64,000 nt of DNA. Source: Vulcanimicrobiota bacterium (GTDB lineage Bacteria > Vulcanimicrobiota > Vulcanimicrobiia > Vulcanimicrobiales > Vulcanimicrobiaceae). The first letter of the stretch is position 1. The number at the start of each line of letters is the position of its first letter. Location: positions 32,001-96,000 of the forward strand of contig CAWGBN010000006.1 of the NCBI GenBank assembly GCA_963820825.1, written 5' to 3'. A program made the translations under genes and the position numbers. The notes beneath the pieces are model-generated. The model did no database searches, was not told where the DNA came from, and saw nothing but the letters and a program-made list of their open reading frames with translations. This document shows, piece by piece, positions 36,294-43,253 of this stretch.

Positions 36294-36357
36294 ACTTGGT
36301 TGGTTACGCGCCGCAGGCCGGAGGCCTGCGGGGATGGCCGCCAGAAGGACGGCCCGG

Positions 36358-37068
36358 ATGCTGGCGCTCTCGCACGTTATCCTGCACGTGGGGTTTTGCG
36401 GTGCCATCGCTCGGATGCCGGCCGAAACAACCGTGGCACTGCGCGTTCACCTCGCCGACCGTTCCGGTCGCACGCAAGTCGATAAGGTCTTTCGCGTCGA
36501 GCGCGGCGACGAATCCGAAGCGATCGTCGAGTTCGACAGCGCCTTCGGCACCTACCGGCTCGACCTCGTCGCGCCGCGGTACCGCTGCTCGGCGACCGAT
36601 TACCTGTTTCTCATTTCGGGGCACGATCGGAGCGTGACGGAGAAGCTCGCCGATGCGTCGGCTCCCGCGCTGCCCGCGCCGGTACTGCTCTCCGGCACGG
36701 CTCCGCAGTCCTTTCTCTACGTCCAGCCGACGTTCGTACTCTTCGATAAGAGTCAGACCGCCTGCGATAAACCCGTGCCCCAGCCGCTGACGACGAACGT
36801 CAGCGTTGAGAACGATCAGGACGGATACTACATCTCGCTCTATCCCGATCGGTCGGCTGCGCCCGGCTCGCAGCAGCTCGCGCTGCGGCTGCGAACGCCG
36901 ACGCGACAGTACCACTACGTGCGCGTTCCGATCTCGTTTCCAATGGCACCGACGGGTTGGCCGACGAGCGTTACGCTCGACGTGACCGAGGATATGATCG
37001 ACGGACTCGCGGGCGATCCGGTCAACACTCTGCTCTGCCCGAAGATGTGGCGCACCTCGGCCGGATAG
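36358..37068 (+). CDS. Hypothetical protein
   Basis: Only long, coding-like frame between korA and the groEL terminator; start uncertain. Confidence 0.6.
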
Positions 37069-37108
37069 CCCTTCGACTCCGCCGCCGCGCGGCTCGCTCA
37101 GGATGACA
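37069..37108 (-). repeat. REP-like element
   Basis: Minus strand reads TGTCATCCTGAGCGAGCCGCGCGGCGGCGGAGTCGAAGGG, the GTCATCCTGAG...TCGAAGG repeat type. Confidence 0.65.
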
Positions 37109-37146
37109 AAAAAAGGAAACAGGCGCACCTCAACGGTGCGCCTGTT
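37108..37146 (-). terminator. groEL intrinsic terminator
   Basis: AACAGGCGCACC-tcaac-GGTGCGCCTGTT stem, followed on the minus strand by TCCTTTTTTT. Confidence 0.8.
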
Positions 37147-37172
37147 AGTCTCGACAGTCCGCGTTCGGACTA

Positions 37173-38848
<1,676 letters not shown>

Positions 38849-39154
38849 TTAAACGCCGGCCGGCACTTTGTCGACGATGGCGAGAATGTCTTTTTCCGGA
38901 ATGATGAGATACTCGGTACCGTCGATCTTGACTTCGCTGCCCGAGTACTTGCGATAGAGCACGCGATCGCCGACCTTGACGTGCATCTCGACCTGAGTGC
39001 CCTTATCGGTCACCCGGCCGGTTCCGACAGCCCGAATGATGCCCTCTTGGGGCTTCTCCTTGGCCGTATCCGGAAGAAAGACGCCGCCGCTGGTCTTGTC
39101 GTCCTGCTCTACGTGCTCGACAACGACGTTGTCGAACAAGGGCTTGAGATTCAC
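38849..39154 (-). CDS. groES: Co-chaperonin GroES
   Basis: LKPLFDNVVV, GGVFLPDTAKEKP, VKVGDRV; GGAGG RBS before GTG. Confidence 0.97.
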   Translation of the reverse strand: MNLKPLFDNVVVEHVEQDDKTSGGVFLPDTAKEKPQEGIIRAVGTGRVTDKGTQVEMHVKVGDRVLYRKYSGSEVKIDGTEYLIIPEKDILAIVDKVPAGV

Positions 39155-39319: not shown

Positions 39320-39598
39320 TTAGAGAATGAGTCGGGCCGGCGAGACGAAGAGCAGGTAGGCCTGGGCCGCCGCCACCGCGGCAAAGAAGAGGACCACCCA
39401 GGGCGGCTTCACCCAACAGCGCCATTGCCGAACGCCCGCGGCGTAGGCCGCGCTGTAGAGCACCACGGCCGCGACCGAGAGCACGAGCACGGCGTACTTA
39501 CCGAAGAGGAGCGCGAGAAAGGCCGCCTTGCAGAACGTGAAGGCGTAGCCCTCGATCTCCTTACCGCGCTGGACTCTGGTCGAGTTCTCCACGAGCAA
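39320..39598 (-). CDS. Small membrane protein, last gene of the Lgt-like/radical SAM operon
   Basis: About three hydrophobic segments, Cys in FCKAA and RCWVKPP; overlaps the radical SAM stop. Confidence 0.7.
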   Translation of the reverse strand: MLVENSTRVQRGKEIEGYAFTFCKAAFLALLFGKYAVLVLSVAAVVLYSAAYAAGVRQWRCWVKPPWVVLFFAAVAAAQAYLLFVSPARLIL

Positions 39599-41090
39599 CC
39601 ATTCCTTTCATGGCGCGCGTTCGCACTTTTGGGAAGAGGCGCGCCGCACAGAACGGCATGCGCACCGGATCGTTCCCCGCGCCGGCGACGTGCACGCAGC
39701 ATTGTTCGAGCCGTTCGGTAATGAGGGTATCGGCGTCCATGAAGTGCTTGATCGTCACGCGTTTGACCCGCTCGCCGACAAAGCGCGCCGTCGCATCCTT
39801 CGCAAACGCCATCCGGATGAGCTCGCCGATGCCCCCGAAGTCGCACGCGTCGCAGAGCGTGCGCAGGTGCTTCGCGAGCTCCGGGCGCGAGAGCGTCATC
39901 GTCTCCGACATGACGCTCATCAGGCCGTCGCGCACGCGCTCGAGCGTCTCGGTGAAGGCGATCTGGTTTGCGAAGACGCTCAAATGCTCGCGTAGCGCGG
40001 CTTCTCCGACGACCGACGCGAGCCCGACGAACCGCCCATGACGGCCGCGCAGGAAGTAGCCGATCGAGCAGCAGTCGGGATGGCTGCACGGTAGGGCGAT
40101 CAGATCGTGCGTACCGACGCCGTAGCGCGACTGCGCGGCGATGCGCGCGAGAACGCCGGTCGTCGTGATCCGCGACATCGGATCGACTCCCGGTGCGCGG
40201 CCCGAAGCAAAGATCGGCTGAAACATGACGCCGCCTACGTACGGCGTCTCGAATGCCGTGTCGAGCACCTCGCCGATCTGATCGGCGTTCTCTGGAACGA
40301 CGGTCATGACGAGCGTGGTAAAGACCCGCGCCCCACTCAGCCGCGCAACCGCGCGGGATTTTACCTCGCGCAGGTCGACCCCGCGCAGGGTTGCGTGCGT
40401 TGCCGCACGCTGCCCGTCGTACTGCAGATAGACCTCAACCCGCTCGCGCAGTCCGCGGAGAGAGTCGAGCAAGCCGTCTTCGTTTGCGAGACGCACGCCG
40501 TTGGTGTTGAGCAGAATGCGGGTGATGGGAAGCGCGCAGAGCCGATCGATCAGTTCGCGAATCTGCGGATGCACGGTCGGTTCGCCGCCCGAGAGCATGA
40601 CGACGTCGAGGCGCCCGGCTTCGCGTTCGATCGCCGTCTCGACCGCATGCACGGCCGATTCCAGTGGAAGATAGTGGCCGAGCGCCGGACTCGAGCTCGT
40701 GTAACATGCCGGACAGGTCAGATTGCACTGTGTCGTCAGATCGAGCAAGTAAATACACGAGTGCTGGAGGTGCCCCGGCCCGAGCCCGTGCTCGTAACCG
40801 GTCGGCACCGGATAGAGCTCGTTCGTATCGGGATTGATGATCTTGGTCGGAACCCGCCACTGCTGCAGGTAACGCCAGAGCGATGCGTCCTCTTCGTAGA
40901 GCGACCAAACCTCGCCGTGACCGCGCCGGCACCAACGCCGCAGGTAGACCGCGCCGTCCCGTTCGACGAGATGACCGTCGCAGAAATCGTCCGGATACTG
41001 CGGATCGAATCCGTCGTGCTCCGAAAAGCAGCGCGGGCAGACCGCACGCACGCTCTTGAGAACCGTGTAGTCGTAAACGCCGAGGGGCAT
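39561..41090 (-). CDS. Radical SAM protein, MJ0619/Tes (tetraether synthase)-like
   Basis: CNLTCPAC radical SAM motif, SGGEPTVHP, LNTNG, N-terminal CPRC...CRRGH, PCSHPDC, C-terminal RLEQCCVH...PFC. Confidence 0.85.
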   Translation of the reverse strand: MPLGVYDYTVLKSVRAVCPRCFSEHDGFDPQYPDDFCDGHLVERDGAVYLRRWCRRGHGEVWSLYEEDASLWRYLQQWRVPTKIINPDTNELYPVPTGYEHGLGPGHLQHSCIYLLDLTTQCNLTCPACYTSSSPALGHYLPLESAVHAVETAIEREAGRLDVVMLSGGEPTVHPQIRELIDRLCALPITRILLNTNGVRLANEDGLLDSLRGLRERVEVYLQYDGQRAATHATLRGVDLREVKSRAVARLSGARVFTTLVMTVVPENADQIGEVLDTAFETPYVGGVMFQPIFASGRAPGVDPMSRITTTGVLARIAAQSRYGVGTHDLIALPCSHPDCCSIGYFLRGRHGRFVGLASVVGEAALREHLSVFANQIAFTETLERVRDGLMSVMSETMTLSRPELAKHLRTLCDACDFGGIGELIRMAFAKDATARFVGERVKRVTIKHFMDADTLITERLEQCCVHVAGAGNDPVRMPFCAARLFPKVRTRAMKGMVARGELDQSPAR

Positions 41091-41401
41091 CAGTGCATGT
41101 TTCCGAGGCCGCCGATGATGGCGTTGCAGAGCGCCGTGAGTCCCAAGAGTCCGGCCGCCGATCCGGTGACCAAGCCGCTCATGAAGTCGATCCGCCTTCG
41201 CGCGAGCGCAACGCCCCAGACTCCCAGTGCAAACCCGCCGACGTAGATGACGGCAAAGCCGTAGGCCGCGTTTGAAGTGAATCGCTCGCCGATCGTCGCC
41301 GCGAGGAGAACCGCGAGCGGCATTACGACGAAGCCGCCGACCGCGATTCCCACCATCAGCCCTACGAAGAACTGACCGTGGAGAGGTGTCTTCGCGGCCA
41401 C
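41090..41401 (-). CDS. Small three-TM membrane protein ending GLTALC-NAIIGGLGNMH
   Basis: Hydrophobic 103-aa frame; TGATG overlap with the radical SAM start; start approximate. Confidence 0.75.
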   Translation of the reverse strand: MAAKTPLHGQFFVGLMVGIAVGGFVVMPLAVLLAATIGERFTSNAAYGFAVIYVGGFALGVWGVALARRRIDFMSGLVTGSAAGLLGLTALCNAIIGGLGNMH

Positions 41402-42060
41402 AGTTGCGTCAGCTTGAATCCGAAGAAGAAGAGGCCCCCGATGCAGAGCACTTGTGCGAGCGTCAGGCCGAGCGGCGTCGCCGGCGCGACGCGAAAGAAC
41501 TCGACCGCGAAGCGATCGGCGCAAAAGAGCACTCCGCCGAAGTAGAAGAGGCCGTTCTCGGGGAGCACTCTTTTCGATTCGAGTGCCGCGAGCGCGGCAA
41601 AGGCGATCGCCGCCGCCGCCGCGAGATAGAGTTGCGCGGGATGGCGCCACGCGCCATGATCGTGCACCGCCCACGCGACGGAGGCGGCTCTGCCGTAACA
41701 GCAGCCGCCGATGAAACACCCGATTCGTCCGATCGCCTCGCCCGCCGGAATCGCGAGCGCGAAGAGATCGCCGGTGGGGCGCGCGATGCCCAAATGCCGC
41801 TTCATCGCGACGACCGCGAGCCACCCGCCGAGAATCCCGCCTTCGATCGTCTTCCCGGGGAGACCGGTTGCGAGCAGCTGCAGCAGGTTGGCACCGGCGA
41901 GCCCGCCGATCAGTCCCGCCGCCATGATCTGCGCCGCGACGTCCCCGGCCAATCCGCGGCGCCGCGCCATCTGCCAGAAGACGAACGCCGCGGTCGCATA
42001 TGCGGCAACGTACAGCGGCGCCGCAAGGAGCCAGCGTGCGTGCCCGTCGAGCGAATCCAT
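41362..42060 (-). CDS. Prolipoprotein diacylglyceryl transferase (Lgt)-family protein, divergent
   Basis: GKTIEGGILGG, AIGRIGCFIGGCCYG, HPAQLY, RFAVEFFR, GLTLAQ. Confidence 0.85.
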   Translation of the reverse strand: MDSLDGHARWLLAAPLYVAAYATAAFVFWQMARRRGLAGDVAAQIMAAGLIGGLAGANLLQLLATGLPGKTIEGGILGGWLAVVAMKRHLGIARPTGDLFALAIPAGEAIGRIGCFIGGCCYGRAASVAWAVHDHGAWRHPAQLYLAAAAAIAFAALAALESKRVLPENGLFYFGGVLFCADRFAVEFFRVAPATPLGLTLAQVLCIGGLFFFGFKLTQLWPRRHLSTVSSS

Positions 42061-42103: not shown

Positions 42104-43253
42104 ATGGGACTAGCCGTGCAGATTCTGCGCATCTCGCTGCGCGCGCTGCGTCATAACGCCGCGCTGCTGCGCGATCTCGTCGGCCCGCAACGCGCCGCCT
42201 TCGTCGTGAAGGGGAATGCGTACGGTCACGGATTGCTCCCGGTAGCGCGCGCGATCGAACCGTTTGCGACGCGTCTCTGCGTCTATACGATCGAAGAAGC
42301 GCTCGCGCTGCGAGCCGGCGGCATCGCGGCCGCACTGCTCGTGCTCGGGCCGATTCCGCCGGAGGCGCTCGACGACGCACTCGCGGCGAACGTTGAGGTC
42401 GTGCTCTGGAACGCCGGCGAGTTCGCGCGCCGGCTCGGCGCGAGCGCGCGCAAGCGCGAGACGAGCGCCGCGGTGCACGTCAAGGTCAACACCGATCTCA
42501 ATCGGCTCGGCTTCGAGCCGCATCAACTCGCCGATGCGCTCGACGCGCTCGCGCGCATGCCGGAGATCGAGATCGCCGGCGTCTTTTCGCATCTCGCCGC
42601 GGCCGAAGAACTCGACTCGCCGTATACGATGTTCCAGCTCGGCGCTTTCGAGCGCGCGCTGGCGCAGGCGAGACTCGTTCTCGAGCGGATCGGGCGAGCG
42701 CCGCTGCGCCACATCGCCGCGTCCGCCGCCGCCATGCTCTGGCCGCAGACGCGCCTCGACTTGGTTCGCTTCGGCATCGCGCTCTACGGTCTGATGCCCT
42801 CGCCGCAGACGCGCGAAGCGTTGGGATCCGCGGCGCCCGACCTGCGGCCCGCACTCTCGTACCGTTCGCAGCTCGTCGTAACGCGTACGATCGCGGCCGG
42901 AGCCTCGGTCGGGTACGGCCGCACCTTTCACGCACCGCGCGAGATGCGCATCGGCGTCGTTCCGGCCGGCTATGCCGACGGCGTGCCTCGCGCACTCTCC
43001 AATCGCGGCAGCGTTCATCGTCGACGGTGCGCTCTGCCCGATCGTCGGGCGCGTTGCGATGAACATGACCGAGATAGACCTCACCGGCGCGCCCCGCGCG
43101 CGCCCCGGTTCGGAGGTCACGCTCATCGGATGCGACGGCGACGCGGCGGTCCGCGCCGACGACTGGGCGGCGTGGACCGAGAGCATCAACTACGAAATCG
43201 TTGCGCGCTTGCCGGGCGAACTGCGGCGCGAATACGAAGAGGCGATCGGTTAG
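42104..43253 (+). CDS. alr: Alanine racemase, frameshift near 43010
   Basis: VVKGNAYGHG, HVKVNT, FSHLA, VGYG, GYADG, then GRVAMN and INYEIV in another frame. Confidence 0.93.

Follow-up and report, generated by a model that had tools for sequence, protein, structure and literature searches.

The cassette described here occupies positions 39320-42060, on the minus strand, of a 64,000-nucleotide stretch of contig CAWGBN010000006.1 (the window) from a Vulcanimicrobiota bacterium, whose genome assembly (GCA_963820825.1) comprises 2.98 Mb in 9 contigs and is 85% complete, with a G+C content of 65%. It consists of four genes encoding a paralog of Lgt (P0001), a small membrane protein with a cysteine near its C-terminus (P0002), an enzyme of the radical S-adenosylmethionine (SAM) type with the architecture of Tes, also named GDGT-MAS (P0003), and a second small membrane protein (P0004). 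The established reaction of Lgt, at the outer face of the membrane, is the transfer of a diacylglyceryl group from phosphatidylglycerol onto a thiol. On the basis of the open reading frame (ORF) list and of the sequence itself, the four genes overlap one another and are all intact. The original prediction, made from the sequence alone, had named an Lgt-like protein, a three-segment protein of 103 residues, a radical SAM enzyme and a 92-residue membrane protein, and Pfam scores and translations agree with it:

41362-42060, minus strand: Lgt paralog P0001, 232 amino acids (aa), PF01790
41090-41401, minus strand: Cys-tailed small membrane protein P0002, 103 aa, GTG start, inside a longer open frame
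41126-41128, minus strand: Cys92 codon of P0002, a lipobox-like cysteine in the context L-T-A-L-C (sequence reading and motif statistics)
39561-41090, minus strand: Tes/GDGT-MAS-like radical SAM enzyme P0003, 509 aa, PF04055, Tes-like architecture
39320-39598, minus strand: membrane protein P0004, 92 aa, TTG start

The junctions read from the sequence were those noted before (overlaps of about 40 nt, TGATG and about 38 nt). The Lgt paralog and P0002 overlap by 40 nt (TAG stop at 41364-41362, GTG start at 41401), P0002 and the radical SAM gene share a stop/start overlap, 'cacTGATGccc', at 41092-41088, and the radical SAM gene and P0004 overlap by 38 nt (TAA stop at 39563-39561, TTG start at 39598). 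An alternative GTG start of P0004 at 39592, which has a better-placed AAGGA and fits homologues of 90 aa, is likely the real one; the product would then be 90 aa long and the overlap 32 nt. Because all four products are conserved as proteins in relatives, the genes are more than the chance ORFs of a 65% G+C genome.

The cassette is a widely conserved, self-contained module of a Cys-variant Lgt-fold protein, a radical SAM enzyme of Tes architecture and small Cys-bearing membrane proteins. Genomes were scanned with the radical SAM enzyme, and the best 80 of 580 confirmed loci were taken (Mycolicibacterium smegmatis was not among the 80). These loci span Eremiobacterota/Vulcanimicrobiota, Chloroflexota (Limnocylindria and Chloroflexia), one metagenome-assembled genome (MAG) of Verrucomicrobiia and many Actinomycetota, the last including Mycobacterium, Mycolicibacterium, Nocardia, Nonomuraea, Microbacterium, Microbispora, Knoellia, Ornithinimicrobium and Dactylosporangium. 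The clade of the window's cassette is common in Mycobacterium and Mycolicibacterium, and close homologues bear the source names Eremiobacteraeota or Baltobacteraceae. In 77 of the 80 loci, the radical SAM gene has an Lgt-like gene next to it on the same strand, the three misses being contig ends, and a P0004-like gene (P4), where present, is found directly 3' of the radical SAM gene (65 loci). The usual order is Lgt-(small gene)-radical SAM-P4; the order radical SAM-P4-Lgt occurs in Microbacterium-type loci and in L010 and L011 (the set being L010, L011, L058-60, L066, L076, L090 and L092), with linkage kept. It had been proposed that the four genes form one unit, whose synteny should then be conserved, and both points are borne out by genes that overlap and stay linked across phyla. 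Stop-to-stop ORF clustering of 90 loci, which is noisy in high-G+C DNA, revealed no family outside the core in more than 15 loci, and those found were lineage-specific (groES/groEL). In one Eremiobacterota MAG (L026:3954-6758), the Lgt-like protein, the radical SAM enzyme and P4 lie in one stop-free frame in which the radical SAM match is broken after about 307 residues, likely due to compensating frameshift errors and not to a true fusion.

Within the window's own lineage, 9 of 41 relatives (the window genome included) carry the radical SAM gene, as do 5 of the 24 other species in its genus. For the phylum as a whole, the gene turned up in 32 of a sample of 301 genomes (among high-quality genomes, 25 of 234; by genus, 14 of 100). 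The gap between groES and alr measures 143-174 nt in 5/5 same-genus non-carriers (G002, G006, G014, G018 and G022) and 2956 nt in the window, where it holds the 2.8-kb cassette; the same-genus carriers L005 and L015 have the cassette at this same groES-alr site. The cassette is accessory: one site either holds it or is empty, which is what a self-contained unit would show.

The pair of Lgt-like and radical SAM genes is also found beyond this clade. A metagenome scan with an alignment of the sister clades gave 80 further loci (29-56% identity). A same-strand Lgt-like gene accompanies the radical SAM gene in 48, upstream in 22 and downstream in 26; the fraction was 28 of 34 for loci with at least 1200 nt on both sides. 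In addition, two natural fusions of an LGT domain, a Zn ribbon and the radical SAM enzyme were identified, P0168 (671 aa) and P0169 (733 aa), which both carry GR.GC and fall in two different clades of the tree described below. Some loci of other clades have a different content. One metagenome locus of low G+C (33%; L134:3126-8027) encodes a Cys-tailed protein, the radical SAM enzyme, an ICMT/PEMT-like methyltransferase with DUF4395, an ArsP-type permease, the Lgt-like protein and a second Cys-tailed protein, the ICMT/PEMT-like gene recalling CAAX processing. Two others (L158:3219-6571 and L163:3405-6722) have a Tes-like radical SAM gene without an Lgt-like neighbour, and have downstream either a fusion of a CobW-like GTPase with a methyltransferase or DUF547 together with a methyltransferase; this type may represent a different sub-system of the superfamily.

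The Lgt paralog and the Tes-like radical SAM enzyme

P0001 matched the Pfam family LGT (PF01790) over residues 17-209 with 78.3 bits (cut-off 24.9), and with 76.2 bits in a whole-genome search, and it scored far below the cut-offs of the NCBIfam lgt equivalogs (TIGR00544, 38 bits, cut-off 118.9; NF000778, 46.5 bits, cut-off 334). A canonical Lgt is encoded elsewhere in the genome (202 bits on PF01790), so P0001 is a spare, altered copy. In the AlphaFold2 model built from 30 homologues, P0001 has seven transmembrane helices with a predicted local distance difference test (pLDDT) score of 93.0, and a Foldseek search of this model returned Escherichia coli Lgt (5azb) as the sole PDB match at E<=0.001 (E 2.5e-7), with a TM-score of 0.74 when normalised to the query (TMq) and a lower one, 0.61, when normalised to the target. 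The periplasmic head domain and arms of the E. coli protein are missing from the model (232 aa against 291), and a short hairpin (132-139) is predicted between helices 4 and 5 instead.

HMMER alignment places the signature GRIGCFIGGCCYG of P0001 on GRLGNFINGELWG of 5azb, with Cys115 at the position of Asn146, Cys120 at that of Glu151 and Glu73 at that of His103 ('IEGG' for 'FHGG'). By contrast, Arg112, Arg183, Glu187 and Arg190 are kept (R143, R239, E243 and R246 of E. coli Lgt). The Lgt signature has been given as G142-R143-L-G-N146-F-I-N-G-E151-L-W-G, together with an H103GGL motif (PMC13251419); P0001 departs from both, and of R143, N146 and E151 only R143 is kept. Distant Lgt proteins with Cys for N146 and E151 have been described in a 2026 survey. 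Among 30 sequences from three phyla, 13 residues were invariant (K87, G97, A103, G111, R112, C115, G123, P141, Y145, R183, E187, R190 and Q203), including the head-group-binding equivalents R183, E187 and R190. Cys at the Asn146 position was thus seen in 30/30 of these sequences, and also in 39 of the 41 metagenome Lgt-like proteins with a readable motif (GR.[GA]C), the other two having GR.GN. In L144 and L146, the Lgt-like protein linked to the radical SAM gene retains Asn at this position (GRLGNLLGGDPFG) and a Cys-tailed protein is nonetheless present. One Chloroflexia genome has a canonical-type Lgt gene (GRLGNFVNQELYG; L030:2272-3261, minus strand) lying divergently beside the Cys-variant gene.

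In summary of its relation to E. coli Lgt (5AZB/5AZC), P0001 shares the Pfam family, the seven-helix fold, the four charged residues listed above, G154 and HP..Y, whereas it differs by the lack of a head domain, by N146C, E151C and H103E, and by being a second copy. Moreover, proteins of the P0001 type are linked or fused to a radical SAM enzyme, and the presumed acceptor Cys lies near the protein C-terminus, compared with its position after the N-terminal signal peptide for E. coli Lgt. P0001 resembles in its N146C change the second Lgt homologue of M. smegmatis, MSMEG_5408, which also carries Y26H and has been reported as non-essential with 'presumed low Lgt activity' (PMC13251419, PMC11741404). 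A nearby-numbered gene, MSMEG_5406, is called 'hypothetical' and was about 9-fold down on zinc starvation (PMC7174638); it could not be tied to the cassette.

P0003 matched the Pfam radical SAM family PF04055 with 66.9 bits and Zn_ribbon_HMPTM with 25.4 bits, slightly under the cut-off of 27. Its best NCBIfam models were TrsS (NF045646; 198.6 bits, cut-off 490) and Tes (NF045702; 157.2 bits, cut-off 450); since both curated cut-offs were missed, P0003 is Tes-like in build yet neither Tes nor TrsS. HMMER aligned it to GDGT-MAS (7tol) over residues 41-484 (E 4.6e-30). The predicted structure (pLDDT 78.9; predicted TM-score 0.86) contains the four-domain architecture of GDGT-MAS and matched 7tom/7tol with E 3e-31/2e-29 and TMq 0.68/0.70 over about 550 columns, compared with TMq of at most 0.35 for the next-best PDB matches (SkfB, viperins, MoaA and others). 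Two features recognised in the original prediction, a rubredoxin-like N-terminus and a C-terminal CC..H...PFC region, are present and conserved: the residues C18/C21/C54/H58 are invariant, with the second pair spaced CX3H, and F450-M451-D452, C464-C465-x-H467 and C481 align to the GDGT-MAS C-terminus. The radical SAM motif C122-x3-C126-x2-C129 is also invariant, and there are an extra conserved LPCSHPDC motif (C335, H337, C340) and a conserved C413. The ligands of auxiliary clusters were assigned by alignment only.

The structure of GDGT-MAS contains a C9X2C12X20C33X2H36 site, a cluster [4Fe-4S]N on C73/C77/C80 and a His, and a cluster [4Fe-4S]C with a labile Met439; the enzyme binds phospholipid tails, abstracts hydrogen from the terminal carbon and forms a lipid C-S(cluster) intermediate (PMC9433317). 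When P0003 was aligned with it, the three [4Fe-4S]N cysteines faced a Cys-free segment, GYEHGLGPGH, which is conserved without Cys across the window's clade and is modelled with low pLDDT (81-91). P0003 shares with the Tes of Methanocaldococcus jannaschii (MJ0619) full-length homology, the fold, the rubredoxin-like N-terminus, the CX3CX2C core and the FMD...CC.H...C region, which in Tes is the home of the reactive auxiliary cluster (PMC9433317), and differs from it in the missed Tes score, the loss of the three N-cluster Cys and the added LPCSHPDC motif. It also belongs to a bacterial, accessory cassette with Lgt-like and small-protein partners, whereas archaeal Tes has none.

Among 1.84 billion cluster representatives, 210 proteins matched P0003 at E<=1e-30. 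Identity dropped from 47-43% (P0124, P0126 and P0127) to at most 35% for full-length proteins, and GDGT-MAS itself scored 108 bits against P0003, below all 150 listed superfamily representatives (at least 136.8 bits). None of the 72 full-length representatives reached the Tes cut-off and two reached that of TrsS. A tree was made by a quick search with a midpoint root and superfamily representatives only, no bona fide Tes being included (68 rows: 58 of the 72 full-length representatives, 14 partial matches having been dropped, and 10 of the 28 rows of alignment A3); in it the window's clade formed one branch (Shimodaira-Hasegawa-like approximate likelihood ratio test 99, stem 0.73), with the TrsS-passing and most Tes-like representatives on the other side. 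The expectation that the enzyme would fall in the Tes clade was thus not upheld, as P0003 lies outside Tes proper by its Tes score, by the ranking of GDGT-MAS below all the listed relatives and by the missing N-cluster Cys.

TrsS, a member of the same superfamily, gives the highest score of the curated models, but its cut-off is not reached; it is listed in a table of PMC13188914 with no function given in the searchable text, and the TrsS preprint 10.1101/2022.07.06.499078 contained nothing on a link between Lgt-like and Tes-like proteins. Another radical SAM enzyme, Mss of Thermotoga/Thermoanaerobacter, couples bacterial acyl tails (PMC13159169, PMC13459092). Because no Tes homologue was detectable in Mss-bearing genomes (PMC13159169), Mss is a distinct family; P0003 could be its functional analogue, yet belongs to a different family, and the searchable text of PMC13159169 mentions no Lgt link. 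On the basis of these comparisons, the module is distinct from canonical lipoprotein biogenesis and from Tes, TrsS and Mss.

Small membrane proteins with conserved cysteines

P0002 has three hydrophobic segments; RRR stands just before the last one, and Cys92 with a tail of 11 residues comes after it, giving the C-terminal segment ...ARRRIDFMSGLVTGSAAGLLGLTALC-NAIIGGLGNMH. Homologues were identified in five loci (L006, L007, L015, L016 and L023), and no Pfam or NCBIfam family was found for P0002 or for 18 small proteins of other loci; a single sub-threshold match of one small protein to the MAB_1171c family (18.7 bits against 100) was disregarded. The small membrane proteins encoded between the Lgt-like and radical SAM genes are diverse, with an N-terminal zinc ribbon, a proline-rich region or a short helical N-domain, and their common trait is a Cys that comes after the last hydrophobic helix and lies a few residues short of the C-terminus.

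This trait was written as a rule (a Cys 3-16 residues from the end, preceded by 15 uncharged residues with a mean hydropathy of at least 1.6) and tested on every ORF of 50-330 aa from the 126 loci holding both Lgt-like and radical SAM genes, ORF calling being crude in high-G+C DNA. The counts of Cys-tailed ORFs were as follows:

Same strand, within 1.3 kb of the pair: 105/1760 (in 87 of the 126 loci)
Opposite strand, within 1.3 kb: 4/1983
Same strand, farther: 1/1206
Opposite strand, farther: 1/1263

Lys or Arg precedes the helix in 101 of the 105 proteins. In 66 non-redundant Cys-tailed proteins, position -1 is most often Ala (14), Gly (13), Leu (11), Val (8) or Ile (7), position -2 holds Gly in 35 proteins and Ala in 9, and Phe stands at position -3 in 24; tail length ranges from 3 to 15 residues, most often 9-10. 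In 11 of the 66 the tail ends in His, often as GG.MH, NH or FH (window 41090-41125; L016, L020, L023, L149, L153, L155, L160 and L170), and such tails occur in clades whose radical SAM enzymes share only about 30% identity; the GG.MH ending of P0002 itself recurs in distant low-G+C clades (L153, L155 and L160). Two or three tandem copies of 58-120 aa were found in L153, L155, L170, L171 and L110. As for co-occurrence in the 77 loci of the window's clade, 48 have both P4 and a Cys-tailed protein, 16 have P4 only, 9 have the Cys-tailed protein only and 4 have neither.

P0002 resembles a lipoprotein precursor without belonging to that class, as its n-h-Cys segment (RRR...LTALC) is C-terminal and is not an N-terminal signal peptide with [LVI][ASTVI][GAS]C. 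MYXO-CTERM-type signals and CAAX boxes are also found at the C-terminus; there the signature precedes the helix, and a protease of the CPBP/Rce1 type processes the protein. The Cys-tailed proteins have in common with them a Cys close to a C-terminal hydrophobic segment as the presumed lipid site, but the Cys comes after the helix, the cassette has no protease gene and the enzymes are unrelated.

P0004 contains two invariant Cys, C23 in AFTFCK and C61 in GVRQWRC within a basic loop. In 28 P0004 sequences from three phyla, C23, Y48, G55 and C61 were the only invariant residues; 25-29 nearly uncharged residues, with a central GP, TPP or GK, separate Cys23 from the loop, and the loop around Cys61 is strongly basic (on average 5.4 K/R against 0.7 D/E per 20 residues), the N-tail being about neutral. 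Two topologies would both fit, namely one long helix with Cys23 outside and Cys61 inside, or a re-entrant hairpin with both inside. A P0004-like gene is missing in 15 of the 80 loci, including about 11 full-flank loci of Mycobacteriales and Pseudonocardiales, and a regex search of these 15 for a divergent P4 gave nothing credible. A P0004 hidden Markov model had 0 matches in the 80 metagenome loci of other clades, and P0004 is specific to the window's radical SAM clade. No Pfam or NCBIfam family was found for it, and its ESM Atlas matches are unnamed clusters only.

A candidate protein-lipidation system and its alternatives

We tentatively read the cassette as a dedicated membrane protein-lipidation system with radical remodelling of lipid tails, and would put the chance of this slightly below even. 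First, judging from its family, the Lgt paralog would transfer a diacylglyceryl-type group to a thiol. Its active site should lie at the outer leaflet and its C-terminus in the cytoplasm, since the Lgt fold and the head-group-binding residues are kept. Second, the acceptor, as its motif and position suggest, would be the Cys at the outer end of the last helix of P0002, in which a basic start, an uncharged hydrophobic run, the Cys and a short tail follow the layout of a lipoprotein signal peptide, but at the C-terminus. Third, by homology with GDGT-MAS, the radical SAM enzyme would functionalise or couple the terminal carbons of acyl chains at the cytoplasmic face, using 5'-deoxyadenosyl radicals and a C-terminal auxiliary cluster. 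As the two active sites would be on opposite faces, the simplest course would be for the enzyme to work on the donor phospholipid, at the inner face, ahead of the transfer. In the fusions, it is attached to the C-terminus of the Lgt-like domain and would thus be on the cytoplasmic side (seven helices, N-terminus outside), as a SAM enzyme requires. Fourth, P0004, which is translationally coupled to the radical SAM gene, may be the membrane partner of this enzyme in the window's clade or a second acceptor.

Several lines of evidence favour this lipidation system. The Lgt-like and radical SAM genes remain linked across phyla, through order changes and in fusions. The Lgt fold, the head-group residues and the Cys at the Asn146 position are conserved in a spare copy, and the radical SAM enzyme resembles GDGT-MAS alone in full-length sequence and predicted fold. 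Furthermore, Cys-tailed proteins are enriched near the pair and occur in tandem copies, and the cassette is accessory at a single site. Indirect support for lipidation of a small protein by the Lgt paralog comes from the class of P0002, whose last helix and Cys mimic a lipoprotein signal peptide and which is strongly enriched beside the pairs; P0002 is a candidate lipid acceptor.

On the other hand, a number of observations weigh against it. The weakest point is that the acceptor Cys and the Lgt site are predicted outside while the radical SAM enzyme must be in the cytoplasm, which keeps the two enzymes from acting simultaneously on one end of one molecule; the order of the proposed steps is a guess. 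Asn146, Glu151 and His103 of E. coli Lgt are all replaced in P0001, and the N146C paralog of M. smegmatis has been presumed to have low Lgt activity (PMC13251419). There is no canonical lipobox, position -1 being Leu, Val or Ile in 26 of the 66 Cys-tailed proteins (Leu in P0002), and no signal peptidase II-like or other processing gene was found within the cassette. It should also be noted that the enrichment is partly post hoc because the Cys-tail rule was written after seeing examples, the controls having used the same rule. By this rule, a Cys-tailed protein is absent from 20 of the 77 loci of the window's clade, and in other clades it was found in 26 of 45 loci and was absent from 19; a part of the loci without it, though not every one, are short contigs. 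Finally, the role suggested for P0004 comes from its position and conservation only.

A different explanation is that the cassette makes free lipids. The radical SAM enzyme would couple acyl tails tail-to-tail as Tes does, giving membrane-spanning or macrocyclic glycerolipids of the diabolic-acid type or similar to brGDGTs (branched glycerol dialkyl glycerol tetraethers); the Lgt-like protein would bind, present or re-head the phospholipid, and the small proteins would be scaffolds or regulators. Such a synthase would account for the likeness of P0003 to GDGT-MAS over the whole architecture, for the kept head-group-binding residues and for the 20 of 77 loci with no Cys-tailed protein by the rule, and the carriers are soil bacteria according to their record titles. 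Bacterial Tes homologues have indeed been proposed as brGDGT synthases (PMC8941075). Nevertheless, the invariant active-site Cys of the Lgt-like protein, the enrichment of Cys-tailed proteins and the two invariant Cys of P0004 would all be left unexplained, and P0003 misses the Tes model and is without one Tes cluster. Archaeal Tes needs no such partners, and Lgt has been reported absent from archaea (PMC13251419). With these points against it, free-lipid synthesis seems unlikely. It also counts against such a synthase that we know of no membrane-spanning lipids from the cultured carriers (Mycolicibacterium, Nocardia and Microbacterium).

The tandem Cys-tailed genes with variable tails (L153, L155, L170, L171 and L110) are reminiscent of the precursors of RiPPs (peptides made by ribosomes and modified post-translationally), which raises the question of whether the radical SAM enzyme modifies the small proteins themselves. 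It would then form a thioether or C-C cross-link at Cys, with Cys61 of P0004, in the basic and probably cytoplasmic loop, as a target or a cluster ligand, the Lgt-like protein would lipidate independently, and the product would be a RiPP-like lipopeptide. A recurrent C-terminal His or GGMH (11/66), the two invariant Cys of P4 and the constant translational coupling of P4 to the radical SAM gene are in line with such a maturase, and the fold matches besides GDGT-MAS include peptide maturases, SkfB for one, over the core only. However, the Cys-tailed proteins are predicted to have their Cys and tail outside the cell, beyond the reach of a cytoplasmic enzyme, P4 is absent from other clades that retain the pair, and no SPASM/twitch or RRE domain was found with Pfam and NCBIfam. 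The sole protein related in structure over the full length is a lipid enzyme (TMq 0.68-0.70, the others reaching at most 0.35), and we regard peptide maturation as quite improbable.

It could also be supposed that the enzyme stops at a C-S (or Se, As) bond at the end of the tail, giving an omega-functionalised lipid that is handled by the Cys-variant Lgt-like protein. Tes catalysis involves a lipid C-S(cluster) intermediate (PMC9433317), P0003 has its best NCBIfam match in the (seleno)protein TrsS, and in other clades (L134, L158 and L163) the neighbours of the radical SAM gene include methyltransferases, a CobW-like GTPase, an ICMT/PEMT-like enzyme and an ArsP-type permease. None of those extra genes is present in the window or its clade, though, the TrsS cut-off is far off (198.6 against 490), the P0003 gene has no selenocysteine codon and the reading is pure analogy, which makes this heteroatom chemistry very improbable. 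The absence of any joint function, with the Lgt paralog as a redundant or decaying housekeeping copy beside an unrelated radical SAM gene, would suit the canonical Lgt elsewhere in the genome and the replaced key residues, but is scarcely credible in view of the linkage across phyla through order changes and fusions, the 13 invariant paralog residues in three phyla and the overlap of the four genes. The probability left over by the lipidation system and these four alternatives is assigned to explanations that we have not thought of.

A bolder generalisation of the lipidation system, which we consider rather doubtful, is that most bacterial 'Tes homologues' are one half of a protein-lipidation machine and not free-lipid (brGDGT) synthases. 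The Cys-variant Lgt would attach diacylglyceryl with radical-coupled (macrocyclic or membrane-spanning) or omega-functionalised tails to the Cys that follows the final helix in small membrane proteins or peptides, the products would be a new class of C-terminally lipid-tethered proteins or lipopeptides, and in the window's clade the two-Cys protein would link the outer transferase with the inner radical SAM enzyme.

The original prediction knew of no described function for this arrangement, and none was found in the searchable literature. We found no paper linking an Lgt-like protein to a Tes-like radical SAM enzyme, supplements being outside the search; the terms 'Lgt' and 'diacylglyceryl' have 0 occurrences in the searchable text of PMC13459092, PMC13274423 and PMC13159169, and one, unrelated, in that of PMC8939145. 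Tes homologues in bacterial genomes have been used as markers of the producers of branched tetraethers, which serve as palaeoclimate proxies (PMC8941075, PMC11868695). If the link to Lgt-like and Cys-tailed proteins is functional, surveys of Tes homologues may count a different pathway. If the lipidation system exists as proposed, it would be a new protein-lipidation route beside Lgt/Lsp/Lnt, with a near-C-terminal acceptor and a radical enzyme. Work on Lgt as a target for antibiotics is under way. Paralogs with N146C, that of M. smegmatis among them, have so far been read as weak duplicates, and the linkage to a radical SAM gene suggests that they have a job of their own. The question is directly testable because the cassette is found in cultured Actinomycetota (Microbacterium, Knoellia, Nonomuraea and Mycolicibacterium).

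Genes flanking the cassette

Downstream of the cassette, groES (38849-39154) and groEL follow on the same strand, and alr lies upstream in divergent orientation. The groEL gene (36304-38833, minus strand) shifts frame twice, near 38175 (after ...AVLDDP) and near 37215 (after ...EPKKEA); because groEL is essential, these changes are probably indel errors of a long-read assembly rather than signs of a pseudogene. The alr gene (about 42110-43253, plus strand) shifts frame near 43000 (...ALSNRGS, then FIVDGALCPIVGRVAMNM...), and its relatives match only residues 6-302 of the straight translation, likely due to the same kind of assembly error. With groEL and alr both frameshifted, indel errors do occur in this part of the assembly, although the cassette genes themselves are intact.

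An uninformative scan of the locus for sigma-70-like consensus gave 0 sites, and terminator-like matches fall inside genes. Between P0004 and groES there is an inverted repeat, TAGCGCTC-N9-GAGTGCTAA (39226-39201, minus strand), and a second, weaker one, TTGCACTC-N9-CTCTGCTAA (39263-39238, minus strand), both of which resemble the controlling inverted repeat of chaperone expression (CIRCE). The groES gene has a GTG start at 39154 with a GGAGG ribosome-binding site and these CIRCE-like repeats upstream, which suggests that groESL is under its own HrcA-type control and is probably outside the cassette operon.

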